DNA of 15,364 bases from Candidatus Buchananbacteria bacterium (GCA_016930315.1 JAFGGX010000022.1:1-15364), one strand, 5' to 3'; shown: positions 2,125 to 15,364, counted from the first letter of the stretch. Notes: generated by a model from the sequence alone, not told the origin. Numbers and translations: made by a program.

Positions 2125-2214
2125 AATAAATGTTAGTTTATTTCGATACTCCAATATTATCACGTCAGAATAAAAAAGGGAAAGATTAATTTTTTTAAAA
2201 AAGTTGTATAATAA

Positions 2215-2781
2215 GTGTATATGAAATTAGAGACTAAACGTCAGGCTGTGCACATCCTCTTATTTTTGTTAGTTTTTTCGCCGTTTATTTTTGATCGGAT
2301 CCAAATGGCTGGGATTTTGGCTGTTCTATTTTTGTTGGCCAGTCTATTTGTGCCGCGATCAAAATTCAGAGTTTGGTTTTTTCGGGCTAAAGAAAAAAAA
2401 TATTCAGTCGGTGCTTCCGTTTATTTTTTAGTTTTGATTATTTTAGTTTTGTTTTTTCCGTTACCCGCCATTATCGCTGGTTGGTCGGCGTTGTCTTTGG
2501 GCGATGGGTTAGCCACCATTATTGGTTTAAGATATGGTCGCACAAAATTGCCTTGGAATAAGCAAAGAAGTTTTGTCGGATCAATTGCTTTTGCGATTGG
2601 CACTTTTGTTGGAATTGTTTTAGCGATGTCGTTTTTAATTCCGACTTTAAACCCGAGTTATATTGTGTTAGTAGCTTTGTTTGGCGGGTTAGTTGGCGCT
2701 ATAGTTGAGAGCTTGCCATTAAAAATTGATGACAACTTATCGGTGCCATTGGTAGTGGCAATTTTGGTGAGCTTGATTTAA
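2215..2781 (+). CDS. Polytopic membrane protein resembling the polyprenol/dolichol/phytol kinase family (CTP-transferase-like superfamily)
   Basis: The 188-aa product has about 6 hydrophobic helices. The motif SLGDGLATIIGLRYGRTKLPWNKQRSFVGSIAFAIG fits the GDxxAxxxG...K(S/T)xxG(S/T) signature of dolichol/phytol kinase-like proteins. TATAAT at 2203-2208 lies directly before the ATG, so the mRNA may be leaderless. Confidence 0.45.
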   Translation: MYMKLETKRQAVHILLFLLVFSPFIFDRIQMAGILAVLFLLASLFVPRSKFRVWFFRAKEKKYSVGASVYFLVLIILVLFFPLPAIIAGWSALSLGDGLATIIGLRYGRTKLPWNKQRSFVGSIAFAIGTFVGIVLAMSFLIPTLNPSYIVLVALFGGLVGAIVESLPLKIDDNLSVPLVVAILVSLI

Positions 2782-2785
2782 CGCC

Positions 2786-2852
2786 ATTTGTCATTCCCGA
2801 CCTGATCGGGAATCTGTTTTTTTTGGATTCCCGCTTTCGCGGGAATGACATG
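2786..2852 (+). terminator. Composite inverted-repeat element between convergent genes: hairpin attcccga-cctga-tcgggaat followed by T8, then a second hairpin attcccgc-tttc-gcgggaat, the whole nested in an outer inverted repeat gtcattcccg...cgggaatgac
   Basis: The stems and the T8 run are visible in the sequence. The first hairpin plus T-run looks like the intrinsic terminator for the 2215-2781 gene. Confidence 0.5.
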
Positions 2853-2869
2853 GAGGCGGGTGACGTGGT

Positions 2870-3430
2870 TTATAGTAGTGGCTCGAGATCCTGGAGGAGC
2901 TTTTCAAATTTTGTGTAGCCAGCTTTGGTGTTGAAGTGGCCAGAGCTGGGAATAAAAGTTAAATCAACCCTAAGCTTTTCCGCTAAAGATTCGCCATTAC
3001 CAAGTGAAACGTAGGGGTCGTCATCTGACTGATAAACTAAAAAGTGCTTAGCACTATTTTTTATTTTTGGCCAATCAAAATCAAAACCGCTGAAACTGCT
3101 ATCGCGCTGGTAATTTAAAATCGGCTTAACACCGATTGGCGTACCAACAAAAACGGCGGTGGCGATTGGTTTGGTTAATTTTTCTAAAACTCGCAAAGTA
3201 AAAACTCCGCCCAAGCTGTGGCCGATAATAATTGTATCTTGATTGATATACTTTTCGTAATTTTTAAAAACCGCAAACCATTCAGTGATTGAAGCTGGCA
3301 TAATCGGCGGTGAAGGAAATTGTGGTACAAAAACTCGATGGCCTTTTTCTTCTAGTTTTTGTTTCAGCCAAGGAAACCAGTTTTCTTCTGGGTAACCTTC
3401 GGTGCCGTGGAAAATAAAAATGTTTTTCAT
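2870..3430 (-). CDS. Alpha/beta-fold serine hydrolase of the YdeN/RBBP9-like family
   Basis: The N-terminus MKNIFIFHGTEGYPEENWFPWLKQKL is typical of this family, and a GHSLGG nucleophile elbow (G-x-S-x-G) is present. The start is assigned to M17 of the ORF (3430) by homology to family N-termini. Confidence 0.7.
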   Translation of the reverse strand: MKNIFIFHGTEGYPEENWFPWLKQKLEEKGHRVFVPQFPSPPIMPASITEWFAVFKNYEKYINQDTIIIGHSLGGVFTLRVLEKLTKPIATAVFVGTPIGVKPILNYQRDSSFSGFDFDWPKIKNSAKHFLVYQSDDDPYVSLGNGESLAEKLRVDLTFIPSSGHFNTKAGYTKFEKLLQDLEPLL

Positions 3431-3479
3431 GTTTTTATTATAGCAATTTATTTTTGATTTGAAACTAAGTTTTCTCATT

Positions 3480-3800
3480 GCTTTTTCACCTTCTAGATTC
3501 AGAAAGTGGAAAAATTTGTTTTTTCACCCTGACATAGGCCCTAGCCTAAATTTGGTGTTTAATTTAGGCTTTGTACTTTTGTGACCAAAAGTACCAAAAG
3601 TCCTGGGGGCACAAATTCGCCCTTCAGCGATGATTAGTTTTTATTCGGGTTTAGGTTGGGGCTCAGTTGTGCCCCCAGACCCCCCGAGTCTTGGTTTATT
3701 TTTGTTAGAGTCCTTAGCTTCTTTATATTTTGCCACTCGCCACTGCCTGCGCAGGCAGGCTTGTTTCAGGCCGTAGCGGTCGGGTAGTGATGTGTAAACA
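3480..3800. other. GC-rich, highly structured intergenic region; possibly an unidentified ncRNA or a long structured leader/trailer
   Basis: Several stems are visible. Hairpin agcctaaatt/aatttaggct spans 3543-3570 and hairpin gtacttttg/caaaagtac spans 3573-3594. A 12-bp long-range stem ctgggggcacaa (3603-3614) pairs with ttgtgcccccag (3667-3678). A 16-bp perfect palindrome ctgcctgcgcaggcag lies at 3743-3758. The GC content is visibly higher than in the flanking genes and no plausible ORF is present. Confidence 0.3.
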
Positions 3801-3803
3801 AAA

Positions 3804-3834
3804 CCGCCCCCGAGTTACGGGGGCGGCGATTTTG
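3804..3834 (-). terminator. Intrinsic terminator, bidirectional in form; it terminates the S16/KH transcript on the minus strand
   Basis: The stem ccgcccccg-agtta-cgggggcgg is flanked by a T-run on both strands. It lies 10 nt downstream of the KH gene stop. Confidence 0.6.
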
Positions 3835-3843
3835 TGACTCAAA

Positions 3844-4188
3844 TTATATCTTGAGGTCGTCTACCACTGAAGTGTCGGCTTCGACTGAAGCGGCTGCTTC
3901 GGTTGGTTTCACTCTTCTTTGTGAACCCTCTGGTTCATAAATTTTGAGGTTGACTCGGGCGTTGTTTTTGGCACCTACAATTTTGAGTAGGGTCCGAATA
4001 GCCCGGGCAGTTTGACCTTGGCGGCCGATGACATAACCCATATCAGCTGGGTTGATGTGTAGAGTGATCAACACTCCCATTTCATCGACTGTGCGTTCTG
4101 TCTTAACATCAGCAGGATTTGCTACGATTGCTCTGACGATGCTTTCGACAAATTGCTGGTCTGTTTGTTGCTCTGACATATATTGCAA
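3844..4188 (-). CDS. KH-domain RNA-binding protein (UPF0109/YlqC-like), the usual partner of rpsP
   Basis: The motif LHINPADMGYVIGRQGQTARAIRTLL contains the KH GxxG core (here GRQG). The gene sits directly downstream of rpsP, as in the conserved rpsP-KH-rimM-trmD cluster. Confidence 0.8.
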   Translation of the reverse strand: MQYMSEQQTDQQFVESIVRAIVANPADVKTERTVDEMGVLITLHINPADMGYVIGRQGQTARAIRTLLKIVGAKNNARVNLKIYEPEGSQRRVKPTEAAASVEADTSVVDDLKI

Positions 4189-4298
4189 TTCATCATTACT
4201 ACTTAATCTGCTTGCTAGCTCAGTCTGCCGACCTGTTTGGCATTAAATTATTTCGCCTTTGCAGCCTGGCTCTCAAGTTCAGTAAAAGAACTAACTCT

Positions 4299-4326
4299 AT
4301 TATACCACAACCATTGGTTTTGTCAA
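4299..4326 (-). promoter_or_regulatory. Near-consensus promoter for the KH gene on the minus strand (TTGACA-16 nt-TATAAT)
   Basis: The minus strand reads TTGACA at plus 4321-4326 and TATAAT at plus 4299-4304. It lies immediately after the rpsP terminator hairpin. Confidence 0.5.
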
Positions 4327-4329
4327 GTT

Positions 4330-4358
4330 AAAAACACCGCCAAGTTGGCGGTGTTTTT
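4330..4358. terminator. Perfect bidirectional intrinsic terminator/attenuator between rpsP and the KH gene
   Basis: The hairpin is aaaaacaccgcc-aagt-tggcggtgttttt. A-runs and T-runs flank the 8-bp GC stem on both sides. Confidence 0.6.
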
Positions 4359-4378
4359 GGTAATTTTTTTGTTCTAAA

Positions 4379-4861
4379 CTAAGCGGGCTTTTCTTCGGTT
4401 GGTTGTTCTGGTTTAGCTTCTGGTCCTGGAGTTTTTTCGGCCGGTTTTTCTTCTTCCTTTTTTTCTTCAACAGCTGGAGCAGGAGTTTCGGCGACTGGCT
4501 CTGCTTGTTTTTCGGCTGGTGCTTCTGCAGGGGCTTCAGTTGGAGTGGCTTCTTTTTTAACTTCAGCAGCTGGCGCAGCTTCTTCACCTTTTTTCTTTTT
4601 ACCACCAGAGGCTTTGACTTTTTTACCAGTCACCACATTTTGATCAATTAACATATTGTTGACAGTTGGTGACATTTGAGCGCCGAATTTGATCCAATGC
4701 AAGACTCGGTCTTTTTTGATTTCACAAACCTTGGTGAATGGATTGTAGTGACCCAAAATTTCCACGGCTTTACCTTGAGTATCTTTGGTGCTTTCGGAAA
4801 CAACAAAACGATAAGTTGGTTGTTTCTTTTTGCCGACGCGGGCTAATCGAATTTTTAGCAT
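4379..4861 (-). CDS. rpsP: 30S ribosomal protein S16 with a long C-terminal Lys/Ala/Pro/Glu-rich low-complexity extension
   Basis: The N-terminus MLKIRLARVGKKKQPTYRFVVSESTKDTQGKAVEILGHYNPF is canonical S16. Residues from about 85 onward are KKKKGEEAAPAAEVKKEATPTEAPAEAP... low complexity. Confidence 0.9.
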   Translation of the reverse strand: MLKIRLARVGKKKQPTYRFVVSESTKDTQGKAVEILGHYNPFTKVCEIKKDRVLHWIKFGAQMSPTVNNMLIDQNVVTGKKVKASGGKKKKGEEAAPAAEVKKEATPTEAPAEAPAEKQAEPVAETPAPAVEEKKEEEKPAEKTPGPEAKPEQPTEEKPA

Positions 4862-4878
4862 AAATTTATAATACTAAT

Positions 4879-4965
4879 TACGAATTAATACCAATGTTAC
4901 GAATATAAAATCTACGAACATTATTCGTAGATTGGTATGCGATTCGTAGATTCGCATTGCATACC
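4879..4965. repeat. Array of five TACGAA/TTCGTA hexamers in the rpsP upstream region. It includes a perfect 10-bp inverted repeat aatctacgaa-catta-ttcgtagatt (4909-4933), a direct 11-mer repeat attcgtagatt (4923-4933 and 4942-4952) and an enclosing stem ggtatgc/gcatacc (4934-4940 and 4959-4965)
   Basis: All copies are counted directly in the sequence. TACGAA lies at 4879, 4898 and 4913; TTCGTA lies at 4924 and 4943. The array sits 20-105 nt upstream of the rpsP start codon on the minus strand. Confidence 0.55.
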
Positions 4966-5114
4966 TATGAATTAATAATGATCTCATTTAATGCCGAGAT
5001 CGTGAGCACAACCTTTGTTACCTTATTAATGTATAGATTTACATTTAAGGTTTGAGTCTATTCTTACAAAGAATTTGGTTTTTGTCAAGAGTGGCTTGGT
5101 TTAGACATAAGTGC

Positions 5115-5144
5115 TTGACAAAATATAACTTTTAGGGTTATGAT
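5115..5144 (+). promoter_or_regulatory. Consensus sigma70-like promoter TTGACA-18 nt-TATGAT on the plus strand
   Basis: TTGACA lies at 5115-5120 and TATGAT at 5139-5144. The same 11-mer cttgacaaaat recurs at the island promoter at 11385-11395. Confidence 0.45.
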
Positions 5145-5252
5145 TTACAACATACTTTCCGATCTATCGCTCAGAGTTCTAAAGTCGTAAGACTTAAAGA
5201 GTTCTGTGATTGGTTAGTCATTTTCGTACTCATGTACGTGCGAGGTTGTATT

Positions 5253-5606
5253 ATGTCGTTACCGCAAGAAGCTCACGTAGACACGCCGTCACGCTCGTTG
5301 GAGTGGACAATGAATGGTCCTGAAGGCCTGCTGTCTAAGCCGACCAGAAATGAAGTCGATCATGTCTTGGCTTCGGAGCTCAGAAAAAAGCGCGACCCGA
5401 AGAAGATTCATGAAAGCCTCTCCCCCGACACCAGGCTTCGCGACATTCTTCCTAAGGAGGTCGTCGTTATTCATCCCCTTTGTTCGGTGGTGTGTAGGAG
5501 ATTGGAGATTCTTCCTGTCATGTCTTCTCGTATACCTCTCGATGATCAGACTTATGGAGATGTGCTTCAATTGCTTTGCGGTCTGTGTGGCTGCTCCCCC
5601 GCTTGA
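5253..5606 (+). CDS. Hypothetical 117-aa protein in a GC-rich cassette; it may alternatively be part of a structured RNA
   Basis: A GAGG lies 9 nt upstream of the ATG (gcgaggttgtattATG). The ORF is open in a local region of about 50% GC, where two other frames are also open. The predicted protein is charged and hydrophilic with a Cys-rich C-terminus (LCGLCGCSPA) and matches no family I recognise. Confidence 0.35.
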   Translation: MSLPQEAHVDTPSRSLEWTMNGPEGLLSKPTRNEVDHVLASELRKKRDPKKIHESLSPDTRLRDILPKEVVVIHPLCSVVCRRLEILPVMSSRIPLDDQTYGDVLQLLCGLCGCSPA

Positions 5607-5742
5607 AAGGATGGTAGAGGAGAGGAGTTTTGCTCATTGTCATTTTCTTATCATTCCGGCCTGTGGCTGGTGTGGTAAACCAAACTTCGGTCAATGACCG
5701 AAACTAAAACCGCCGGAGCTCCAAAAGCCCCGGCGAATTTCT

Positions 5743-5767
5743 GCCCAAAATTTGTGGGCATTTTTTT
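5743..5767 (+). terminator. Intrinsic terminator for the plus-strand GC-rich unit: gcccaaaatttgtgggc followed by T7. A second hairpin cgccgg...ccggcg at 5711-5735 may serve the convergent SMC gene
   Basis: The stem plus TTTTTTT run is visible in the sequence. Confidence 0.5.
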
Positions 5768-5778
5768 ATTTTGAGGAT

Positions 5779-8103
5779 TTATTGTCTAACAATTTTTGCT
5801 GCCTCCTCGAGCTGCAAACTTAGAAGTTTCGATATTCCGTCATCGCCCATGGTGACACCATAAAGAATGGAAGCTTTTTGCATGGTGGCGCGATTATGAG
5901 TAATGACAATAAATTGAGTTTTGTGAGAGAGCTCATCTAAAATTTTAGAAAAGCGTTGAGAGTTAGTTTCGTCCAAAGCAGCATCAACTTCATCTAAAAT
6001 TACAAACGGTGACGGGTTGTTGGCGATGATAGCACAAATTAAAGCAATGGCGGTTAACGACCGCTCGCCACCGGAAAGAATATTAACCGAAGAAACTTTT
6101 TTGCCCGGAGGAGTGGCGGTAATGTCGATGCCAGTAATGACTTTGCCGGTGGTTTTTTTTAAAAATCTTTTGGGTGAAATTGATTTTTCGGCATTTTGGA
6201 GTTGATCGAGAATCGAAGGCGAAGCCAAAAGTGATTCGTCGGGGTTTTGCGGGTTAGCAACATCAGTTTCAGTCGGTTTTTTTTCTTCGACCTCATTTGG
6301 ATCTTGTTTAATTAAAGTTAAAGTTGCTTTGCCGCCGCCAAATAAGGTGTTGAAAAATTTGGCAAATTCTTTGTTGATGTTTTTAAACGCTTCGTCAAAT
6401 TGAACTTGGATTTTTTCGTCCAGGTCGGTAATAATTTTTTCTAAAGATTTAATTGAATTACGTAGGTCGTCAGCTTGGGTTGATAAAAAGTCATGGCGGT
6501 CTTTTACTTTTTTGTGTTCGTCAATTACTTGGGGATCAACTCCGCCGATTAGTTCGAGTTGGCGGCGCTGTTTGATAATTTCTTCATGTAAAGCCACCTC
6601 ATTAATTTTTTCGGCTTGGTAATCTTTTAACCAGCCGCTGTCTTTAACCTCGTCTTTAATTTCTTGAGTTAAACTTTGTTGGCGGGTTTCGAGTTTGGCC
6701 ATTTCAATTCGGATTTCCGAAACCGCGCTGGCTTGTTGGTTATATTGATTTTGGCGGTCCGAAATTTTTCGTTGTAAATCAAAGAATTCACCTTTTTGTT
6801 TTTGTTGATCTTGATTAAAATTGGCAATGTCGGTTGAAGCTCCACTGAGTTGTTTTTCCATGGCACCTAAATCTTTTTTTACTGCTTCTAAATCTTTGAT
6901 AAAACTCGGATCAATTTCGGTTGCCACTTTTTCTTTGACTTGCGGATTTTCGAGTTGGCTGATTAAGTCTTTAATTAAACTAGCTAAGTCTTTGGTGTCG
7001 GATTTAATTTGGCCAATTTTGTCCGCCTTGCCGCTTTCGATATTTTTGCTGATTTGGTCTTGCAAGCTGGCAATCGCTTTTAGTTTTTTGATAATTTCTA
7101 AAATTGGCAGCGGGGAAGCTTTAATGGTTTGGCGCTGTTTGGCCATTTCAATTTTGTGTTCCAGCATCAATTGCTCTTCGCGCAGTTTGTTTTTTTGTTC
7201 GAGTAATTTTTGGTAGCGGCTTTGCAACTCGGTGAATTTGGAGTTACTGGTATCTTGTTTTTCTAAGCTCGACAAACGTTGTTGGGCGGCTTTTAATTCT
7301 TGATCTTTTTTGGCCAGTTCGACTTCGGCCGTTTGCAATTTAGGTTTAAGGTCGGTAACTTGTTGGGTTAGTTGCCGATTTAACCAGCCATAATATTTTT
7401 TTTGGGTTTGCTCTAACTCCGCTTCAATTTTGGCCCGGCGTTCCAAACGATGAACTTGGCGGGTGAGTGAATTTAAGCGGGGGGAAATTTCGGTCAGTAA
7501 TGCGTCAATTTGTAATAAATTGTTCCAGGCGTTTTCTAATTTGTTAATTGAACTGTCGCGTTTGATCTGAAATTCTTTGACCCCAACCGCTTCATCAAAA
7601 TATTCTTTTCGATCCGACGGGTTAGCCATAATCACTTGATCAATCGAACCCTGAGAAACAATGCTGTAACTTTTTTGACCAAAATTAGCCTTGGCGGCTA
7701 AAAGTAAAATATCTTGTAAACGAACTTTGCTGTTGTTGATTAAATATTGGCTTTCACCATCACGATACATTTTGCGGCTGATAATTACTTCATCGTAATC
7801 AATCGGTACCAAGTGAGCGGTGTTATCAATAATAATTTTTACTTCCGACATGCCCAGTCGGCCTTTTTTTTCTGAACCAGAAAAAATAACATCTTGCGAT
7901 TTTTTACCGCGTAAACTTTTTAAACTTTGTTCACCTAAAACCCAGCGAATGGCGTCAACCAAATTACTTTTGCCAGAACCATTGGGCCCGACAATACAAG
8001 CAATACCACAGCGGTCTGTGGTTATATTACGACTAGGAAAGGTGAGTAGGGTTTTTTGAGCGAAAGATTTAAAACCTTGGATCTCAATACTTTTGATAAA
8101 CAT
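5779..8103 (-). CDS. smc: SMC-family chromosome-segregation ATPase, short form (about 775 aa) with no recognisable hinge domain
   Basis: The N-terminus MFIKSIEIQGFKSF...IVGPNGSGKSNLVDAI carries the SMC FKSF motif and a Walker A box. The C-terminus LSGGERSLTAIALICAI...FVILDEVDAALDETN...QFIVITHN has the ABC signature, Walker B and D-loop. The middle is continuous coiled-coil-like sequence with no Gly-rich hinge. The start is taken as M14 of the ORF (8103). Confidence 0.8.
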   Translation of the reverse strand: MFIKSIEIQGFKSFAQKTLLTFPSRNITTDRCGIACIVGPNGSGKSNLVDAIRWVLGEQSLKSLRGKKSQDVIFSGSEKKGRLGMSEVKIIIDNTAHLVPIDYDEVIISRKMYRDGESQYLINNSKVRLQDILLLAAKANFGQKSYSIVSQGSIDQVIMANPSDRKEYFDEAVGVKEFQIKRDSSINKLENAWNNLLQIDALLTEISPRLNSLTRQVHRLERRAKIEAELEQTQKKYYGWLNRQLTQQVTDLKPKLQTAEVELAKKDQELKAAQQRLSSLEKQDTSNSKFTELQSRYQKLLEQKNKLREEQLMLEHKIEMAKQRQTIKASPLPILEIIKKLKAIASLQDQISKNIESGKADKIGQIKSDTKDLASLIKDLISQLENPQVKEKVATEIDPSFIKDLEAVKKDLGAMEKQLSGASTDIANFNQDQQKQKGEFFDLQRKISDRQNQYNQQASAVSEIRIEMAKLETRQQSLTQEIKDEVKDSGWLKDYQAEKINEVALHEEIIKQRRQLELIGGVDPQVIDEHKKVKDRHDFLSTQADDLRNSIKSLEKIITDLDEKIQVQFDEAFKNINKEFAKFFNTLFGGGKATLTLIKQDPNEVEEKKPTETDVANPQNPDESLLASPSILDQLQNAEKSISPKRFLKKTTGKVITGIDITATPPGKKVSSVNILSGGERSLTAIALICAIIANNPSPFVILDEVDAALDETNSQRFSKILDELSHKTQFIVITHNRATMQKASILYGVTMGDDGISKLLSLQLEEAAKIVRQ

Positions 8104-8129
8104 ATACATACATATGATAGCAAACCGGC

Positions 8130-8154
8130 TGACTAAAAACAATATTTGTGCTAA
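8130..8154 (+). repeat. Direct repeat copy 1: tgactaaaaacaatatttgtgctaa, promoter-like (cTGACT-17 nt-TAAGGT)
   Basis: It is identical over 25 nt to 10824-10848 and lies at the left edge of the GC-rich island, 150 nt upstream of the NfeD gene. Confidence 0.8.
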
Positions 8155-8303: not shown

Positions 8304-8837
8304 ATGCTCATCAGTCTCGGAACGTACATGCTGATTGCTGTGGTTGGTTTTTTGTTACTGGCTGGTTCCCTGTTTTTCGGCGGTGACACTGATGTTGACG
8401 TCGATGTTGACGTCGATGTTGACGTCGGTTCAGGGATCAGTTGGATCAGCTTCAAAACCATCATGGCATTCGTGACCGGTTTTGGCGCTTCCGGCGCAAT
8501 TGCCAAATCCTTCCGCGTATCGGATCTCTTGACGCTCTTTGCAGCAATCGTCGGCGGCTTTGGTATAGCTGTCATCGCTGCTTTGATCGTCAGACATCTG
8601 TATCGGTCACAGTCCAACTCAAGCTACTCATCGTGCGACCTGGCCGATAAAACCGGCAGGGTAGTCGGTGAGATTATTCCTGGCCATTATGGCAATGTGA
8701 GTGTCAGCTTGCATGGTGAAACAATCACCAAACCAGCCAAGGCACCAAACGAAATCGAACCGATCAAAGTCGGCTCAACCGTCAAGGTAGTTTCTGCCAG
8801 CTCGACTGAGTTGGTGGTTGAACGTGTAATCAGTTAA
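8304..8837 (+). CDS. NfeD-like membrane protein: N-terminal transmembrane segments plus a C-terminal OB-fold beta-barrel, the usual partner of SPFH/flotillin proteins
   Basis: The product has an N-terminal hydrophobic domain and a C-terminal GRVVGEI...GSTVKVVSASSTELVVERV beta-rich domain typical of short NfeD (YuaF-like). A strong AAGGAG lies 9 nt upstream of the ATG. The gene is GC-rich and immediately precedes the flotillin gene, as in yuaF-floT operons. Confidence 0.75.
   Translation: MLISLGTYMLIAVVGFLLLAGSLFFGGDTDVDVDVDVDVDVGSGISWISFKTIMAFVTGFGASGAIAKSFRVSDLLTLFAAIVGGFGIAVIAALIVRHLYRSQSNSSYSSCDLADKTGRVVGEIIPGHYGNVSVSLHGETITKPAKAPNEIEPIKVGSTVKVVSASSTELVVERVIS
8391..8426 (+). repeat. Exact 12-nt tandem repeat gatgttgacgtc x3, encoding (DV)n within GDTDVDVDVDVDVDVGSG
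   Basis: The three copies are counted in the sequence. The repeat lies inside the NfeD-like CDS, between the first TM helix and the second membrane segment. Confidence 0.85.
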
Positions 8838-8894
8838 CCTGAAGTTTTGGTTAGCAAAACCTATTACCCCTAATCTTGAAAGGAATTCATCGAG

Positions 8895-10709
8895 ATGATT
8901 TCAGCTGCAAGTTTCCTGTCTGGTATTGATCTCGGAAGCCTGGTTCGTCCGGGCATGGTTTTGCTGGCGGTGTTGGCTCTGATCATCATCGTCATGCTGG
9001 TGTTGAGAAACTACAGAACCGTACCGCCTGACAAAGTTTTGGTGGTCTACGGTTGGAAGAAGGGCAACAAAGCCGGCGACCGCGGATTCAAAATGATCAC
9101 CGGCGGTGCTACCATCGTCTTACCGCTGGTGCAAAGTTTCAAGGAGCTGTCATTGGCGGCGTTTCAGGTGAAATTCTCGGTCACTAACGTACCCAGTAAG
9201 GAAGGCGTACGCGTTACCGTCAGCTCAGTGGCCACTTTGAAAATCGGCAGTAGTGACGAGATGCTGTCGTTGGCGGCGCGACGCTTTCTGCACATGGATC
9301 TGAATCAGGTACATACCTTTGCTCAGGAAGTATTGGAGGGTGGCCTGCGTGGCGTGGTAGCCACGCTGACCGTCGAAGGCCTGGTGCAGAACCGTCAGGA
9401 GTTCACTGAGGCCGTTATGGGTCAAGTCACTGATGACTTGGCCAAGCTTGGTCTTGAAGTAGACAACTTCGTCATCCAAGACATCGATGACGAAGGGGGC
9501 TACATCAACGCTTTGGGTCTCAAGCGTACGGCGGAAGTCAAGCGCGATGCCAAAATCGGTGAGGCTGAAGCCAGGCGCGATGAGGACATCAAGGTGGCCG
9601 AAGCCCAGCGTGAAGCCGACGAGAAATCTTCCGCAGCCAGACGCATCGGCGAGACAGCCAAGGCTGAGGCCGAGCAGAAGATCAGCGACGCTCAGCGTAT
9701 TCGCGATGAGCAAATCGCCAAGAATCAGGCCATCGTCGAGCGGGAAAAAGCCCGTGTGCCGGTGGCCGCCAAAATCGCTGCTCAGGAAGAACAGAAAACC
9801 TTGGGCGTCAAAACCGTTGAAGCCGAGCAGGCCGAGACCGAGGCCAGGATTCTGCTTCAGGAAAAGGAACGGGAACGTAAAGACGCTGAGCTCAGGGCCA
9901 CGGTTATCGTCACCGCCGAACGCACCAAGGAAGCATCGGTGATCACTGCCCAGGGCGAGGCTCAAGCCGAGATCGAAAAAGCCAAAGGCGAACGTACGGC
10001 CGAAGTTGAACGCGCCGAAGGCAAGAAAAGCGCCCAGGTGCTCAAGTCCGAAGGCGAGAAGACCGCGGCTGAACAAGCTGCTGAGGGTCGTAAGGCCCAA
10101 GCCGTTGCTCTCCAATCGGAAAAAGAGGCCGAAGCGGCTGGTCAGAGAGCCAATCTCTTGGCCACCGCCGAAGGCGAGAAGGCCAAGTTGCTGGCCACCG
10201 CCGAAGGCGAGAGGGCGAAACTGGAAGCCGAAGCCAGAGGCGTTGAGGTCAGAGGTCTCGCTGAAGCCTTGGCCGTCCAGAAGAAAGCCGAAGCCTACGC
10301 GTTGCTCGACCAAACCGGAAAGTTCCTACAGATTCTCGAAGCCATGCCCGGACTGATCGAAGCCCTTGGCGTCGCGGTCAGGACCGCCGGCGAAGGCACG
10401 GTCACGCCGATGGCCAAAGCCATCGGAGACGGCCTCGGGAACATCAAAGAGGTTCGCATCGTCGAAATCGGCAAACCCGGAAGCGATGGCACCAAAAGCC
10501 AAAACCCGTTGTCCAGAATCGCCAACATCACCCCCGACACCATCTTCGCCCTGGTCAAACAGTTCGAGGCTCTGGGATTTGGCGACGTCTTGAAGCAGGT
10601 GGCCACCAAGGCCGGTATCGACCTGTCTTCGATTGTGGAGAATGGGCCGAAGATCGAAGCCACTCCGCCCGAACCCGAATCGCCTCCGAACGTTCCGACC
10701 GAGAACTGA
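8895..10709 (+). CDS. floT: Flotillin (SPFH/band-7 family, FloT/YuaG-like) with a long Glu/Ala-rich coiled-coil region
   Basis: The product has an N-terminal TM segment, an SPFH domain (VLVVYGWKKGN...KELSLAAFQVKFSVTNVPSKEGVRVTVSSVATLKI...) and flotillin-type EA repeats (AEAQREADEK..., LLATAEGEKAKLLATAEGERAKLEAEARG). An AAAGGA Shine-Dalgarno site is present, the gene is GC-rich, and it follows an NfeD gene. Confidence 0.85.
   Translation: MISAASFLSGIDLGSLVRPGMVLLAVLALIIIVMLVLRNYRTVPPDKVLVVYGWKKGNKAGDRGFKMITGGATIVLPLVQSFKELSLAAFQVKFSVTNVPSKEGVRVTVSSVATLKIGSSDEMLSLAARRFLHMDLNQVHTFAQEVLEGGLRGVVATLTVEGLVQNRQEFTEAVMGQVTDDLAKLGLEVDNFVIQDIDDEGGYINALGLKRTAEVKRDAKIGEAEARRDEDIKVAEAQREADEKSSAARRIGETAKAEAEQKISDAQRIRDEQIAKNQAIVEREKARVPVAAKIAAQEEQKTLGVKTVEAEQAETEARILLQEKERERKDAELRATVIVTAERTKEASVITAQGEAQAEIEKAKGERTAEVERAEGKKSAQVLKSEGEKTAAEQAAEGRKAQAVALQSEKEAEAAGQRANLLATAEGEKAKLLATAEGERAKLEAEARGVEVRGLAEALAVQKKAEAYALLDQTGKFLQILEAMPGLIEALGVAVRTAGEGTVTPMAKAIGDGLGNIKEVRIVEIGKPGSDGTKSQNPLSRIANITPDTIFALVKQFEALGFGDVLKQVATKAGIDLSSIVENGPKIEATPPEPESPPNVPTEN
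10159..10224 (+). repeat. Near-identical 33-nt tandem duplication inside the flotillin gene, encoding LATAEGEKAKL/LATAEGERAKL
   Basis: The unit tggccaccgccgaaggcgagaaggccaagttgc is followed by tggccaccgccgaaggcgagagggcgaaactgg. Confidence 0.8.
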
Positions 10710-10786
10710 TCTCGTCGCACATTCTCCTTTCGGTTATCGAACCTTGTAACATTCACCAATTTGGCCAATAAAGCCATTGAGGTTAT

Positions 10787-10818
10787 GCCCCGTTGTGAAA
10801 GCGACGGGGCTTTTCATT
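10787..10818 (+). terminator. Intrinsic terminator after the flotillin gene (gccccgt-tgtgaaagcg-acggggc followed by ttttcattt), fused to direct repeat copy 2
   Basis: The hairpin and T-run are visible. It is part of the recurring unit cggggcttttcattt-NNNN-ttgac(a/t)aaaa. Confidence 0.6.
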
Positions 10819-10823
10819 TATAT

Positions 10824-10848
10824 TGACTAAAAACAATATTTGTGCTAA
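10824..10848 (+). repeat. Direct repeat copy 2, tgactaaaaacaatatttgtgctaa, identical to 8130-8154; promoter-like (TTGACT-17 nt-TAATTT)
   Basis: The two copies match 25 of 25 nt. The NfeD and flotillin genes lie between them. Confidence 0.8.
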
Positions 10849-10932
10849 TTTTTTTTGGTCGATGTCTTAGCAGAAATACTAAGATCTCGATTAGTTGTTT
10901 AACTCTGACCTGAAGAGAGAGGAGAATGTCTC

Positions 10933-11289
10933 GTGGGTGAGAAACAGCTTTATGTTATTGTGTTGGCCGGGATTGTGATTCTGTTGTGTGCTGTTGTGTG
11001 CGTCATGGCAGTATTTAAGTTGATTGCGGCCAAAGAGGAAGCACCCGAGCCCAGAAAACTCGAGCCCAAAGAACCTCAACCGCCCAAACGCCCGATCGTT
11101 TTGGTTCGACCGAAACACCCCCAAGGCGGCCATCCTTGGTTTTGGTTGTCTCGCAGGCAACCGGTAAAACCGAGTAACCAGCCCTCACACCCGCTCTTTT
11201 TGCCGCGTCGAAAATCCACAGCCTTCAAAGCCACTCCAAGGTTGCCAAGATTTCCGGGTTTTCAGCGTAAAAAAGGCGTAAAGCGTTAG
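10933..11289 (+). CDS. Small single-pass membrane protein with a Pro/Lys/Arg-rich tail (hypothetical)
   Basis: The gene has a GTG start with AGAGGAGA 8 nt upstream. One TM helix (LYVIVLAGIVILLCAVVCVMAVF) is followed by EAPEPRKLEPKEPQPPKRP... The gene is GC-rich. Confidence 0.45.
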   Translation: MGEKQLYVIVLAGIVILLCAVVCVMAVFKLIAAKEEAPEPRKLEPKEPQPPKRPIVLVRPKHPQGGHPWFWLSRRQPVKPSNQPSHPLFLPRRKSTAFKATPRLPRFPGFQRKKGVKR

Positions 11290-11347
11290 TTAGCCTAACC
11301 GATTAAATGCTCTATTGTATTTTTGGGGAAAGAAAATCCCAAGTTGT

Positions 11348-11380
11348 GCGCCCCCCAGCCAAAGCTGCGGGGCTTTTCAT
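11348..11380 (+). terminator. Intrinsic terminator (gcgcccccc-agccaaa-gctgcggggc followed by ttttcattt). It is the second copy of the terminator-promoter unit
   Basis: The hairpin is followed by the same ggggcttttcattt tail as at 10804-10818. Confidence 0.55.
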
Positions 11381-11385
11381 TTGTC

Positions 11386-11414
11386 TTGACAAAATGTGAT
11401 ATTTATGATAAGGT
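11386..11414 (+). promoter_or_regulatory. Promoter-like TTGACA-17 nt-TAAGGT, related to the 8130 and 10824 repeats (shared tgac.aaaa...atattt...taaggttt frame)
   Basis: TTGACA lies at 11386-11391 and TAAGGT at 11409-11414. It is followed by a leader containing hairpin agctg-ttttt-cagct followed by a T-run (11444-11466). Confidence 0.4.
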
Positions 11415-11560
11415 TTGCAATCGTTCATTATATTTAAAATTCAAGCTGTTTTTCAGCTTTTTGGCTATTATTTGATAGTAGTTGAAAGGCTGGAAAACAA
11501 CTTAGTACGACATCATCATGTGAGGGTTACTCTCACTTATCTGTTTGAAAGGAAACGATC

Positions 11561-11968
11561 ATGAACCCAAAGTCCGAATGGCGAGGCCTTCTGCTACGCT
11601 CTTTCATCTTCTGGATCATTATCACCCTTTTCTTCAGCCTGTTGCGTCTGGCCACTGCAGGCCCCATGCTGGAGTTTGCCTTGGTCTTCAGCTTGTATTA
11701 CGGCTTGGGCGCCGGATTTTACATGATCAGCTGGTCGACCCAGGACTGGAAACAGGACTCAGCGGTAACCATAGTCGTTATCTACTTGGTGCTACTCATC
11801 TGTTTCTTAGGCTTCGGTCGTCTCGACCTTTTCGACAATCCGTCGAATATCTCGCGGGCAGAGGAGTTCCTGGTGGTCTTTGTCGGGTTTATGGTCACAA
11901 GGATTGTCGCCCACCACCCGCTGCAGAGGCCGAAGAGGAGATTGCCTGGGCCAACCATTCTCACTTGA
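11561..11968 (+). CDS. Hypothetical 4-TM membrane protein (135 aa)
   Basis: AAAGGA lies 8 nt upstream of the ATG. The product has four hydrophobic helices. The gene is GC-rich and I recognise no family. Confidence 0.5.
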   Translation: MNPKSEWRGLLLRSFIFWIIITLFFSLLRLATAGPMLEFALVFSLYYGLGAGFYMISWSTQDWKQDSAVTIVVIYLVLLICFLGFGRLDLFDNPSNISRAEEFLVVFVGFMVTRIVAHHPLQRPKRRLPGPTILT

Positions 11969-12058: not shown

Positions 12059-12213
12059 CAAGAATGTCTATTAAGGGATTAAAAATCTTTTGGTGAGCTA
12101 GTGGACTGAGCAATCTGATTATCTATCCACCCAGATTGGGGTGGATTTTTGCTTTTTTTGCTTTTTTCAATTATAATTAAAGCAAATCATAAGTTAAAAA
12201 CGGTTATTAATTC

Positions 12214-12921
12214 TTGAATATTTTGTTAATTTTTAAGATGCTTTACTTTTTAGATATTCCAAATATTTTGTTAGTAATTTTAGCACTCAGTTTGGGTTTG
12301 TATGGTTTTGTAAAAAATCCAAAGTCCAGATTGGTTCAGGTTTGGTTTGCTTTGAATATGGCAGTGACAGCTTGGGCAGTTGGTTATATTTTGACTAATT
12401 ATTCAGTCAGTAATAGCCAAGCATTTATTTGTTTAAAAATAGTTTATTTTGCAGCTTCATTAATCCCTATCTTGTTTTTCCATTTTGTTTCTAGCTTTTT
12501 ATTTAAGAATTATAAATATAGGATTCTAATCTATATTGGTTATATTTCGGCCCTATTTTTTTTAATATTGAATGTATTAACCAATCATATTATTTCTGGT
12601 ATCAGGTTCATGGAAAATTACGGAAGCTATGAGGAAATCGAAACAAAGGGATTTTATTTTTTCTTGATTTATTTTTTCTTTTTTTCTTTCTTTTCCATCG
12701 GCTTGCTTTGGAAAGGCTATAAGGAAAGCAGTGGGGTAAGAAAACGCCAGATTTTTTATATTGCCTTAGCCGCCTTAGTTGGGTTTTTGGGCGGCACGTC
12801 AAATTTTTTTACCGATTTAACTGGGATTTATCCTTATGGTCAGTTTGTAGTGTGGCTTTATCCTTTATTTATCACTTATGGGATGTATATTGATGAGATT
12901 CAAATTAAAATTAAGTTTTAA
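12214..12921 (+). CDS. Polytopic membrane protein, paralog 1 of 3; resembles the N-terminal 7TM region of sensor histidine kinases and GGDEF proteins (7TM sensor-like) but has no output domain
   Basis: The 235-aa product has about 7 hydrophobic helices. A family pattern is shared with the next two genes: TM1, a basic K/R-N turn, a W-containing TM2, and F(F/L)(H/E)...YFP(Y/F)QR(W/V)E after TM3. The gene is extremely AT-rich. The domain assignment is from memory of the family consensus. Confidence 0.6.
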   Translation: MNILLIFKMLYFLDIPNILLVILALSLGLYGFVKNPKSRLVQVWFALNMAVTAWAVGYILTNYSVSNSQAFICLKIVYFAASLIPILFFHFVSSFLFKNYKYRILIYIGYISALFFLILNVLTNHIISGIRFMENYGSYEEIETKGFYFFLIYFFFFSFFSIGLLWKGYKESSGVRKRQIFYIALAALVGFLGGTSNFFTDLTGIYPYGQFVVWLYPLFITYGMYIDEIQIKIKF

Positions 12922-12923
12922 CT

Positions 12924-13601
12924 ATGGATTGGAGTAATTTAGGTTTAATTTTTGTGGCCGGGTCACAGTTAACGTTGGCGTTCATTATTTTATTTATCAA
13001 TTTCAAAAACAAAATTTGTTTGTATTTTTCAGCAGCAGTTTTCTGTTTGGCCGCCTGGACTGCTTTTACTGCTTTATTCCGGATGGTCAGTGGAGTCGAA
13101 GCGATTAGGATTTTATATAGTTTTAAGATCTCGTTTGGGTTGTTAATTGCTTTATTTTTTGAAATTTTTGCCATTTATTTTCCTTATCAAAGATGGGAAA
13201 TAAATAAATTGGTCCAAGCCATAGTTATGATTCCTACCTTGCTGACGATTTTAATTATTTTAACTTTTCCGCAGTTTTTGTTAACTAATATTTTTGTTAA
13301 CCCTGGCGCTAATACAGTCACAGTCAATAAAATTTTTTGGATACTTTTTTCATTCAGTTTTACTTTAAGTTTTGTAGCAGTTTTTGTTCGACTGATTATT
13401 AAGTTTAAAGAGATTGGCGGGTTTATGAAAAAGTCTTTGTTGTTTGTAATAGTCGGCGGATTGGTACCAGTGATTTTATCTTGGTTTTTTAATATTATAT
13501 TTTTATTTTTTGATGTTTTTGTATTTGATTGGATTGGTGCATTATTGAGTTTGATATTTTGTTTTGTTATGTATTATTTTATTTTTTTTAAAATGGATTA
13601 A
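12924..13601 (+). CDS. Polytopic membrane protein, paralog 2 of 3 (7TM sensor-like, stand-alone)
   Basis: The start lies 2 nt after the previous stop. The product is 225 aa with the same topology and the motif FFEIFAIYFPYQRWE. Confidence 0.6.
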   Translation: MDWSNLGLIFVAGSQLTLAFIILFINFKNKICLYFSAAVFCLAAWTAFTALFRMVSGVEAIRILYSFKISFGLLIALFFEIFAIYFPYQRWEINKLVQAIVMIPTLLTILIILTFPQFLLTNIFVNPGANTVTVNKIFWILFSFSFTLSFVAVFVRLIIKFKEIGGFMKKSLLFVIVGGLVPVILSWFFNIIFLFFDVFVFDWIGALLSLIFCFVMYYFIFFKMD

Positions 13602-13606
13602 GTTTT

Positions 13607-13762
13607 ATGAGCTTGATTAATTTAGGGTTGGTTCTTATAGTGGGACTAAATTTTGGTTTAGCATTTTTGATTTGGTCAATTAACAAAAAAAATAAGATTA
13701 GTATTTCTTTTTCTTTGCCAATGATTGTAATTTTGGCTTGGTTTGTTTTGAATAAAAAATAA
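13607..13762 (+). pseudogene. Truncated copy or fragment of the 7TM paralog family (51 codons; first two helices only)
   Basis: MSLINLGLVLIVGLNFGLAFLIWSINKKNKISISFSLPMIVILAWFVLNKK mirrors the TM1-KN-TM2(W) N-terminus of the neighbouring genes and then stops. It may instead be a genuine small protein. Confidence 0.3.
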
Positions 13763-13766
13763 TTTT

Positions 13767-14447
13767 ATGAGGTATTTTTATATAACGCTTTTAGCTCTAA
13801 ATGCGCCTATTGCTATTCTAAGTTTTATTTTTTCTTGGATCATTTTAAAAAATTGGAAAAGCAAAGTTTATTTTAATTTTGGGATGTCTGCTTTATTTTT
13901 GGGTCTATGGCTTTCCGCTTCTGAGATAATGTATCTCGATTTAAATTTTTTGCCTAGGATTTTTATAGTAGATTTAACTTTTTTGTTTGGGATTTGGATT
14001 TTGCATTATTTTTATATTTTTACTTATTATTTTCCATTTCAAAGAGTCGAAATCAGGTGGCAAGAAAAATTCATATATTTTTTGACTATTTTGATATCTG
14101 TAAGCATATTTATTCCTAGTTTATATGCTCGTTCCGCAGATTTAGATTTTCCGTTTCTTTTTGTTAATATAAATAAAATCGGCCTTTCAATTTTTGTGGC
14201 CTATTTTGTTTTATTAATTGTTCTGTCATTAAAAAATTTGTTGTCAAAATATTTTATCAGTGATGGAATACACAAAATAAATTTAAAAAAAGTAATAGTG
14301 GGCACGACGCTGGCTTTGATTGTAAATTTATTTTTTAGCATGTCTATTTATTTTTTTACAGAGTTTGATACTAATGTTGTTGGTGCTTTTTTTACTTTGG
14401 GCGTAATAATTTATATTTATTTAATTTTATTTCCCAGAGATATTTGA
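13767..14447 (+). CDS. Polytopic membrane protein, paralog 3 of 3 (7TM sensor-like, stand-alone)
   Basis: The 226-aa product contains the motif ILHYFYIFTYYFPFQRVE. Unlike the other two paralogs it has no Cys. Confidence 0.6.
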   Translation: MRYFYITLLALNAPIAILSFIFSWIILKNWKSKVYFNFGMSALFLGLWLSASEIMYLDLNFLPRIFIVDLTFLFGIWILHYFYIFTYYFPFQRVEIRWQEKFIYFLTILISVSIFIPSLYARSADLDFPFLFVNINKIGLSIFVAYFVLLIVLSLKNLLSKYFISDGIHKINLKKVIVGTTLALIVNLFFSMSIYFFTEFDTNVVGAFFTLGVIIYIYLILFPRDI

Positions 14448-14454
14448 AATCTTT

Positions 14455-15165
14455 ATGTTAGATAAAAAATTTTGGAAAAAATACTTTACGGTTTATGATG
14501 TTCTTAATATTGTTATACCTTATAAAGAATTAATGTCTACAATTTGTGATAAAGCGGACGTAAAAAAGGGCGATTTGATATTAGATGCTGGGTCAGGCAC
14601 TGGCAATTTATCTTTGGAATTAGTACATCGTGGCGCTACCGTGTATGCTACTGATTTCATAAAGGAGGGGCTGGATATATATAAGGAGAAAAATCAAAAT
14701 GCAATAGCAATTCAGCATGATTTAACCGAAAGACTGCCATTCCCTGATGATTTTTTTGATAAAATTGTATCTAATAACGTTTTGTATTCTGTGAGCAAAA
14801 AAGATAGGAGATTTGTCATATCTGAATTATATCGTGTGTTAAAACCAGGCGGTAAGATTGTCATTTCTAATATAAAAAGTGGTTGGAGTCCATATCGCAT
14901 TTATCTCAGTCATTTAGTAAAAGAATATAATAATTCTGGGCCGTTTATTTTATTGGTAAGAATTGTAAGATTTATTTTTCCTACTATGATGATGTTTTTA
15001 TATAATGCTAAAATCAAGAGAGATTCTGGGGCTGGCGGTGGTTATAATTTTTTTGAGTCAGGAGAACAGAGGAATTTGTTAATTAATGGAAATTTTAGGC
15101 GTGTGTCAGAAGATGTGGAAGTCTATGCAGATCAAGCGATATTGAATACTGGTTTTAAAATTTAA
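14455..15165 (+). CDS. Class I SAM-dependent methyltransferase
   Basis: Motif I is LDAGSGTGNLS, post-I is VYATDF and motif II/III is LKPGGKIVISN. Confidence 0.8.
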   Translation: MLDKKFWKKYFTVYDVLNIVIPYKELMSTICDKADVKKGDLILDAGSGTGNLSLELVHRGATVYATDFIKEGLDIYKEKNQNAIAIQHDLTERLPFPDDFFDKIVSNNVLYSVSKKDRRFVISELYRVLKPGGKIVISNIKSGWSPYRIYLSHLVKEYNNSGPFILLVRIVRFIFPTMMMFLYNAKIKRDSGAGGGYNFFESGEQRNLLINGNFRRVSEDVEVYADQAILNTGFKI

Positions 15166-15174
15166 TTTCTATAT

Positions 15175-15364
15175 ATGAAAGAAATGTTAAGAATTTATTT
15201 AGGTGATTGTAAGGACAAATATGTATCATTTGGCATGCCAGATAGTCAGGCGGAGCTGAATGAAATGTTTTCTCTTAGATATAAAGCATATTCTAGAAAA
15301 TTTTTTATAGAAGAAAATAATCTTGGTTTAGACATCGATCACTATGATGAAATTGGCGCATGCC
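15175..15364 (+). CDS. Partial ORF running off the window end; N-terminus weakly reminiscent of GNAT-fold N-acyl amino acid synthases or LuxI-like acyltransferases
   Basis: MKEMLRIYLGDCKDKYVSFGMPDSQAELNEMFSLRYKAYSRKFFIEENNLGLDIDHYDEIGAC contains an L-R-Y-K-x-(Y/F) stretch similar to the LRY.VF motif that opens those families. Only 63 codons are visible. Confidence 0.3.
   Translation, partial: MKEMLRIYLGDCKDKYVSFGMPDSQAELNEMFSLRYKAYSRKFFIEENNLGLDIDHYDEIGAC

Follow-up and report, generated by a model that had tools for sequence, protein, structure and literature searches.

What use is a sensor domain that has no output domain attached? The question is raised by one end of a contig from Candidatus Buchananbacteria (GCA_016930315.1, JAFGGX010000022.1); the window analyzed here is that whole contig, 15,364 bp in length. 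Between positions 12214 and 15364 lie six frames in the same direction, three of which encode membrane proteins resembling the seven-transmembrane (7TM) sensor region of histidine kinases, without the kinase; the others are a stub of a further such gene, a methyltransferase dependent on S-adenosylmethionine (SAM), and the beginning of a LuxI-like N-acyltransferase. We conclude that the locus is in all likelihood a quorum-sensing-like operon pairing an autoinducer synthase with a sensor kinase, of which the window holds the 5' part, the kinase being absent from the window because the contig ends. That the kinase-less copies are accessory receptor subunits acting with this kinase is a tentative proposal, to which we give somewhat less than even weight. 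As a blend of these two estimates, we would put the reading as a whole, a signaling locus in which the kinase-less proteins take such an accessory role, at a probability of roughly 0.55.

Sensor-like proteins and enzymes at the contig end

The six frames, all on the plus strand, are separated by spacers of 2, 5, 4, 7 and 9 nt, in order, and the operon is cut off at the end of the contig. First comes P1 (12214-12921), a kinase-less 7TM protein of what we term type A, followed by P2 (12924-13601), of type B, by a 51-codon stub with two predicted membrane helices (13607-13762) that matches the N-terminus of type C, and by P3 (13767-14447), another kinase-less 7TM protein, divergent in sequence, for which types C and B are the nearest. 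A class I SAM-dependent methyltransferase of 236 aa, UbiE/COQ5-like, is then encoded at 14455-15165, and at 15175-15364 the opening 63 codons of a putative N-acyltransferase of the LuxI/FeeM family, similar to autoinducer synthases, this last frame being open at the contig end. A preliminary description of the stretch had placed the frames in this way, and they stand, save that the true start of P1 is more likely the ATG at 12238, where its orthologues start and from which an independent gene call likewise derives a protein of 227 aa.

The 7TM proteins, each of ~226 aa, end directly after helix 7, and the next gene begins 2-7 nt on. No kinase, GGDEF or other output domain is present on P1, P2 or P3, as had been stated in the preliminary description, and spacers of 2-7 nt leave no room for one. 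HisKA_7TM is a sensor domain found in kinases of bacteria and archaea and in diguanylate cyclases. Pfam defines it as an N-terminal region of kinases, lying ahead of a kinase or other output domain; in the window proteins, on the other hand, the domain is the entire protein, and it is in relatives that a kinase-linked form is found, as a separate downstream gene.

The assignment of all three proteins to this N-terminal 7TM family holds, by different routes for different members. With a gathering cut-off of 28.6 bits for Pfam HisKA_7TM (PF16927), P1 scores 54.5 bits, above it, P2 scores 22.6 bits, below it, and P3 returns no match, so that of the three Pfam matches that had been expected only that of P1 appears. 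P1 is thus a member by score. For P2 and P3 membership follows from homology and fold, because they are 28% identical to each other over 195 residues (BLASTP, E 6e-10) and because P2 shares 45% identity with the second 7TM gene of the syntenic contig L001, 50% with the representative P0002, which has a precomputed PF16927 match, and 29% (E 5e-12) with the L001 kinase in its 7TM domain. The view of the three as equal paralogs fares less well. The relationship of P2 to P3 is secure, whereas BLASTP detects no similarity of P1 to either (E > 1), and P1 is linked to them by profiles only, not pairwise; the motif YFP(Y/F)QR(W/V)E, which had been ascribed to all three, occurs in P2 and P3 only, not in P1. 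P1 thus belongs to another subgroup than P2 and P3. It carries a conserved C-terminal segment, GIYPYGQ..WLYP..TYG..DEIQIKIKF.

Structure prediction by AlphaFold, which had been proposed as a check, yields seven-helix bundles for P1 (predicted local distance difference test score, pLDDT, 91.8; predicted template modeling score, pTM, 0.89) and for P3 (pLDDT 84.5, pTM 0.82). The two models share a plan of seven long helices with a β-hairpin between helices 4 and 5, and the PDB folds closest to them are G-protein-coupled receptors (GPCRs); that 7TM kinases and diguanylate cyclases have a GPCR-like fold was pointed out before (PMC13581589). From the models we would read this likeness as a resemblance of fold rather than a sign of common descent, and nothing places the window proteins among GPCRs by sequence-level homology or G-protein coupling. 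Positive charges, as read from the sequence, fall in loops 1-2, 3-4 and 5-6, a pattern that would put the N-terminus outside and the C-terminus inside.

Polytopic membrane proteins that share an operon with signal-making enzymes might also move a hydrophobic signal, as exporter, importer or flippase, rather than sense it. The one transporter assignment to appear, a faint and non-significant likeness to a 'MAB_1171c family putative transporter' (E 0.044 and 0.2), was rejected, and no transporter family matches at a significant score. Since the proteins are homologous to a sensor domain, since the predicted structure is one GPCR-like bundle of seven helices that shows no inverted repeat and has no partner ATPase, and since most synthase/kinase loci do without such copies, we consider a transport role quite improbable.

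The stub had been described as the remnant of a fourth copy, and the comparisons agree: it is 46% identical to the N-terminus of P2 (E 3e-9) and 55% identical to that of the third 7TM gene of L001 (E 4e-10), it scores 47 bits with the type C profile versus 29 bits with that of type B, and its hydropathy shows two hydrophobic segments. Its sequence probably marks it as the remnant of a type C kinase-less gene. P3 scores 64 bits with the type C profile and 54 bits with that of type B. That stub and P3 are a single frameshifted gene was ruled out, as P3 possesses a first helix and a K-N-W-K-S-K loop of its own.

The first of the two enzymes is a class I SAM methyltransferase, as had been recognized, scoring 73.9 bits with Methyltransf_11 (cut-off 21.2 bits) and 67.2 bits with Methyltransf_25 (cut-off 27 bits). 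Its glycine-rich SAM motif, LDAGSGTGN, is invariant across the family, for which we find more than 254 full-length relatives at 44-57% identity. The closest solved structures are phosphoethanolamine N-methyltransferases, the likeness extending over the core domain only. This otherwise soluble protein has a strongly hydrophobic segment of 19 residues (aa 164-182), lying within a conserved, family-specific C-terminal part (P-T-x-K-M-F-Y-Y-N), which might be a helix for association with the membrane, or else a lid closing over a hydrophobic substrate; as far as its sequence goes, the segment would fit such a substrate. By analogy with PhcB/PhcS, our guess is that the enzyme methylates the acyltransferase product to an ester or to an N-methyl derivative.

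For the acyltransferase, the 63 residues in the window give on their own a weak match to FeeM (PF21926; E 0.028) and one to TIGR03694 (E 0.0046), the best Pfam and NCBIfam hints for the fragment; TIGR03694 and the FeeM N-acyl amino acid synthases have a GNAT/LuxI-like fold family in common. The fragment is 38% identical (E 9e-10) to the full-length, syntenic 244-aa protein of L001, which scores 45.3 bits with Autoind_synth (PF00765; cut-off 24 bits) and 40.4 bits with FeeM (cut-off 27 bits), and this orthologue favors the earlier reading of the frame as the start of a GNAT- or LuxI-type enzyme. The synthase genes of L012 and L100 have precomputed Autoind_synth matches, and the best hits of the family profile among solved structures are the N-acyl-homoserine lactone synthases BjaI, RpaI, EsaI and LasI (E 4e-5 to 5e-4). 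Invariant in the family alignment are R36, Y40, D56, D59, R79, E110 and R113, the first five of which align with BjaI and RpaI. LuxI synthases have a conserved N-terminal series of R, aromatic, aromatic, D and D, and later R, E and R; from a by-eye reading of the alignments, we would take the invariant R, D, D, R, E and R of the family to lie at these LuxI-conserved positions. At the two aromatic positions the family has Y instead of F/W, the same substitution as in the LuxI homologues of the candidate phyla radiation (CPR) reported by Bernard et al. (PMC7567580). The window fragment retains the family-invariant F19, G20, E27, R35, Y39, D55 and D58, and the later residues lie beyond the contig end. 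Membership in the PEP-CTERM/exosortase-associated acyltransferases of TIGR03694 was ruled out, the fragment (16.4 bits) and the L001 orthologue (31.5 bits) both scoring far below the cut-off of 111.95 bits; no exosortase genes were seen in annotated relatives.

Gene order in relatives

If the window breaks off within an operon, what follows must be sought elsewhere. L001, a Candidatus Buchananbacteria contig located by scanning species-representative genomes with the methyltransferase, has three kinase-less 7TM genes in the order A-B-C (~225 aa each), then a methyltransferase of 49% identity, the 244-aa LuxI-like protein and a 728-aa kinase of architecture HisKA_7TM-GAF-HisKA-HATPase_c. L100, which has the closest methyltransferase (56% identity), shows the order A-C-methyltransferase-Autoind_synth-partial kinase. 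The same core recurs in other long contigs, with three kinase-less copies in L014, one in L015 and a similar arrangement in L018, and in L012, a 405-kb contig, the synthase, methyltransferase and kinase stand together with zero kinase-less copies. Every syntenic relative with enough sequence runs on into a full-length HisKA_7TM-(GAF)-HisKA-HATPase_c kinase. The idea of an output-less array as a system in itself must therefore be given up, since the contig simply ends and its relatives continue, while the expectation that methyltransferase and acyltransferase would prove to be conserved neighbors is confirmed by L001, L012, L014, L015, L018 and L100, and by counts over a larger sample.

For these counts, 80 metagenome loci were fetched with a 32-sequence methyltransferase alignment and annotated with purpose-built profiles for the 7TM domain, the acyltransferase, the kinase core and the methyltransferase, giving 54 distinct orthologue loci. 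Among those with long flanks on both sides (n = 15), a 7TM kinase is found in 12, a LuxI-like gene in 9 and a kinase-less 7TM gene in 2; with one long flank (n = 31), the corresponding numbers are 22, 17 and 5. The methyltransferase and the 7TM kinase are thus the constant pair, with the LuxI-like gene as the usual third member and the kinase-less copies as optional. No LuxR-type cytoplasmic receptor occurs in the Pfam-annotated neighborhoods of L012, L014, L015 and L100, the membrane kinase being there instead.

The synthase position is itself variable. In place of the LuxI-like gene, some loci carry the gene for a ~355-aa Rossmann protein weakly similar to long-chain acyl-ACP reductases (TIGR04058, E 8e-7), namely L017 (2066-4344), L024 (7718-9939), L055 (1783-4001), L056 (7717-9905), L022 (4018-5097) and L034 (1923-3023). 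The order here is methyltransferase, ~355-aa protein, a NifS-like class V aminotransferase (4 loci) and 7TM kinase, with no LuxI-like gene; the NifS-like gene may be a housekeeping neighbor and not part of the system.

A further arrangement is seen in L101-L103, again from Candidatus Buchananbacteria, where two kinase-less copies, one of them of type A, lie ahead of a 400-aa pyridoxal phosphate-dependent acyltransferase of the BioF/Kbl family, and a 7TM-GAF kinase comes after it (L101, 8001-12888; L103, 3392-8279), with no methyltransferase or LuxI-like gene in the operon. The BioF/Kbl family includes the CqsA-type autoinducer synthases, and we regard the set as a BioF/CqsA-like synthase/receptor operon in which one enzyme replaces the LuxI-like gene and the methyltransferase together, much as in the Vibrio CqsA/CqsS pair. 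Because the kinase-less copies are here paired with a different synthase, they travel with the kinase and not with a particular enzyme.

This last point bears on whether the kinase-less proteins might instead anchor or partner the methyltransferase and acyltransferase in work on membrane lipids. Their tight linkage to both enzyme genes, their conserved cytoplasmic loops, the hydrophobic segment of the methyltransferase (aa 164-182) and the fact that its closest solved relatives methylate phosphoethanolamine would all suit such a role. Yet the same kinase-less types stand beside a 7TM kinase and a BioF/CqsA-like enzyme where neither methyltransferase nor LuxI-like gene is present, the methyltransferase/acyltransferase loci mostly lack a kinase-less copy while nearly all have the kinase, and the acyltransferase matches autoinducer synthases, not lipid acyltransferases. 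An anchoring function is accordingly, in our estimate, highly improbable, and nothing was found in support of the roles in lipid modification or surface diversification that had been floated in the preliminary description.

Two further sets of loci were seen on more distant contigs. In L002 (4850-10714) and L049 (382-7735), both high-GC and of Chloroflexota type, a methyltransferase homologue of 29-42% identity lies at or near the gene for a 1,021-aa protein in which a related 7TM domain is followed by GAF-GGDEF-HD-GYP; it adjoins that gene in L002, where a GH3-family (acyl-acid amido synthetase-like) gene precedes, and is ~3.5 kb off on the opposite strand in L049. The link between methyltransferase and 7TM sensor may thus extend beyond the CPR and beyond kinases. 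L104 (2205-12424), a Gram-negative-type contig, carries in tandem two kinases of 812 aa, with two HisKA_7TM domains apiece, that adjoin ketoacyl synthase, acyl carrier protein, ketoreductase and amine-oxidase-like genes, another pairing of sensor and lipid-type biosynthesis.

Possible roles of the kinase-less copies

Are the kinase-less genes then a working part of the locus? Type A comprises P1, L001-1, L100-1, L101-1 and at least 20 further distinct clusters at 90% identity; its members end characteristically in GIYPYGQ..WLYPILITYGIFVDEIKIKIKF, and conservation extends to the cytoplasmic loops (RNPKS; GY..SDG..RR) and to the C-terminal tail DEIKIKIKF. Type B comprises P2 and L001-2, and type C comprises L001-3, L100-2 and others. 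Against the kinase 7TM domain, P2, L001-2 and L001-3 show 25-31% identity (E 1e-10 to 1e-15), which by sequence identifies the kinase-less proteins as paralogs of the kinase sensor domain. NCBI annotates P2 as a hypothetical protein and names some other kinase-less members 'histidine kinase N-terminal 7TM domain-containing protein'. All three types recur across genomes at 35-55% identity with frames and motifs intact, and this argues that they are maintained by selection.

They might, on the other hand, be non-functional leftovers of duplicated sensor-kinase genes, heading for deletion. A series of decay stages can be assembled from the stub, a 103-aa fragment in L047, a 353-aa protein in L024 in which the 7TM domain is followed by no more than the first 30 HisKA positions, and a 7TM-GAF-HisKA protein in L070 without the ATPase; P3, moreover, is very divergent and has no Pfam match, and most loci are missing such copies altogether. 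In L102 (10654-12895) the kinase of the BioF/CqsA-like operon is encoded in two pieces, a 7TM protein of 284 aa and a GAF-HisKA-HATPase_c protein of 476 aa, the cause being either natural fission or a frameshift. Taken at sequence level, these forms make it likely that kinase-less copies arose from kinase genes that were duplicated or split and then lost their cytoplasmic half. As a full account of the present-day genes, however, decay appears very unlikely to us: types A, B and C are full-length and intact in several genomes at the identities just given, with recurring motifs that include the cytoplasmic loops and the type A tail; the type A clusters number at least 20; the kinase-less length is seen in about 30 of the best 150 representatives of the family; the AlphaFold models are confident; and the genes are packed at 2-7 nt in a single operon.

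The family figures come from an exhaustive profile search of 1.84 billion representatives, in which the HisKA_7TM-related family amounts to 9,808 clusters of representatives at E <= 1e-3, and in which the fused forms came to light. (P2 by itself matched 2 sequences in a word-indexed search, and a 27-sequence alignment gave 25 among the matches listed, all of kinase-less length.) The best 150 representatives divide into long proteins with one 7TM domain (66), with two (46) or with three (2), proteins of kinase-less length, 200-290 aa (30), and fragments of less than 200 aa (6). One of the triple forms, P0148, has the architecture 3x HisKA_7TM-GAF-HisKA-HATPase_c and a CPR-like context. To judge from these sequences, several 7TM modules would commonly act within one receptor polypeptide, and separate genes would be the obvious in-trans version of the same design.

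A functional protein of this kind need not work through the neighboring kinase. It could be an independent receptor whose cytoplasmic partner docks on the loops, strongly conserved in type A, and on the C-terminal tail, conserved there too; GPCRs, with which the proteins share fold and topology, use cytoplasmic partners, and the kinase-less length accounts for about one-fifth of the best 150 representatives. We nonetheless hold this to be distinctly unlikely, as no candidate partner gene is conserved in the neighborhoods seen, the tail resembles, in a by-eye reading of the alignment, the juxtamembrane segment of the kinase and so fits descent from it, and the copies always adjoin a 7TM kinase where the flank is long enough.

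The mechanism that we favor, that of a signaling operon with accessory receptor subunits, would run as follows. The acyltransferase and methyltransferase would together make a small, hydrophobic, acyl-derived signal, for example a derivative of an N-acyl-homoserine lactone or the methyl ester of an N-acyl amino acid. This signal would partition into the membrane and be sensed there by the 7TM domain of the kinase. Kinase-less copies, most likely the products of kinase genes whose cytoplasmic part was lost or split away, would associate in the membrane with the kinase 7TM domain, as the in-trans equivalent of the tandem-7TM kinases, and might tune or widen the response of the kinase, or else damp it, whether by forming signaling-incompetent pairs or by soaking up ligand.

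Several considerations weigh against this proposal. It is built from gene neighborhood, homology and predicted structure, and the kinase, lying outside the window, is known from relatives. Most of the methyltransferase/synthase/kinase loci are without kinase-less copies, which are to that extent dispensable for the core function, and the stub and the decay intermediates indicate that some copies are merely degenerating. The fused tandem 7TM domains all resemble type A rather than a pair of type A and kinase-type domains, so that they favor 7TM-7TM cooperation in general and not a specific contact of P1-P3 with the kinase. No Response_reg gene lies within ~8 kb in any annotated relative (the set of L012, L014, L015, L100 and L101-L103). 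The methyltransferase could act on a substrate other than the acyltransferase product. And CPR bacteria often have no fatty-acid synthesis, a difficulty for the supply of the acyl donor.

A stronger version of the favored proposal would make the kinase-less proteins obligate or regulatory partners of the 7TM kinase, in mixed receptors with one output-bearing subunit after the manner of the GABA-B pair. We would call this unlikely, if by no means far-fetched.

Precedents, genomic setting and meaning

How much of this was known? Bernard et al. (2020, mSystems; PMC7567580) described LuxI homologues in the CPR, 18 of which adjoin a sensory kinase and were put forward as candidate complete quorum-sensing systems; in the supplementary table, the adjacent kinases match the sensory N-terminal profile of CqsS. 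Those pairs and the present locus belong to one lineage (CPR/Patescibacteria), and in both a sensor kinase adjoins a LuxI-family synthase homologue in which two conserved positions carry aromatic substitutions. The claim that the system is undescribed is to that extent overtaken, the core pairing of synthase and kinase being already published. The kinase-less receptor paralogs and the link to a methyltransferase, on the other hand, go beyond that paper: 'methyltransferase' and 'histidine kinase' do not occur in its main text, and the paper is absent from full-text literature matches for HisKA_7TM, on which grounds we judge the kinase-less paralogs not to be described there.

A closer parallel for the methyltransferase is the Phc system of Ralstonia, in which the PhcB methyltransferase makes methyl 3-hydroxymyristate and the PhcS membrane kinase senses it (PMC8578825). 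Set side by side by gene arrangement, both have a SAM-dependent methyltransferase gene beside a membrane sensor-kinase gene, and the logic of a methylated fatty-acyl signal, here a proposal, would be common to the two. What sets the present locus apart from Phc is the presence of an acyltransferase of the LuxI family and of receptor copies without a kinase, and the absence of a PhcR/PhcQ-type regulator nearby.

The Vibrio pairs LuxM/LuxN and CqsA/CqsS are precedents for a hydrophobic, acyl-derived autoinducer that is sensed in the polytopic membrane domain of a histidine kinase and not by a cytoplasmic LuxR. We know of no kinase-less sensor copies in either. Unlike LuxN and CqsS, the sensor here is a seven-helix HisKA_7TM domain and the kinases are not hybrid; NCBIfam gave no link of the kinase 7TM domain to the LuxN or CqsS sensors, only LuxN appearing, at E 0.25.

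The operon also stands apart from the rest of its contig in base composition. GC content at third codon positions is 0.30-0.43 in the housekeeping genes (1450-8142), 0.52-0.71 in a block of NfeD-like, flotillin, orf118 and orf135 genes (8304-11968), and 0.23-0.32 in the 7TM-methyltransferase-acyltransferase block (12238-15364). A terminator-like hairpin on the plus strand at 12125-12146, with an 8-bp stem that includes 5 G-C pairs followed by the T-run TTTTGCTTTT, is the upstream boundary both of the operon and of the low-GC block. The three composition blocks suggest two adjoining islands that were acquired separately. An assembly chimera behind the sharp change in GC was ruled out, as a second independent assembly has the same junction. 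In other genomes the 7TM-methyltransferase-acyltransferase cluster lies in unrelated neighborhoods. P2 is recorded on two assemblies only, the 15,364-bp contig and a shorter one of 10,691 bp that ends earlier, and exact-sequence look-ups of the methyltransferase and of P3 returned no record.

Three other genes of the window deserve brief mention. The NfeD-like open reading frame (8304-8837, plus strand) has a perfect (Asp-Val)6 dipeptide repeat around residues 28-41, which corresponds to a short hexanucleotide repeat within the coding region, with (Ser-Thr)n in the antisense frame. The gene for ribosomal protein S16 (4379-4861, minus strand) encodes 160 aa, of which ~75 residues form a C-terminal extension rich in Lys, Glu, Ala and Pro. 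An SMC-like frame (5779-8142, minus strand) encodes 787 aa, or 776 aa in an independent gene call, and looks short beside bacterial SMC proteins, which are typically of ~1,150-1,200 aa.

What, finally, might the locus tell us? The source organisms are uncultured and the evidence is wholly computational. The papers found to name HisKA_7TM treat it as a sensor domain only and give no ligand; the domain is found here repeatedly beside enzymes that use fatty-acyl groups, and this leads to the testable guess that its ligand is the product of the neighboring synthase and methyltransferase. The kinase-less copies amount to a natural experiment on the cooperation of 7TM sensors, with separate genes here and fused tandem domains elsewhere. 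CPR bacteria are thought to depend on other cells, and a self-contained signal/receptor operon in this group bears on how they might sense their partners. Were the mixed-receptor idea true, bacteria with tiny genomes would possess a combinatorial set of GPCR-fold receptors for lipid-like signals, served by swappable synthase cassettes (LuxI-like plus methyltransferase, CqsA-like, or acyl-reductase-like), and the large HisKA_7TM family would have its first ligand class. The main value of the locus is as a concrete, testable lead to the ligand class of this large family of orphan sensors.

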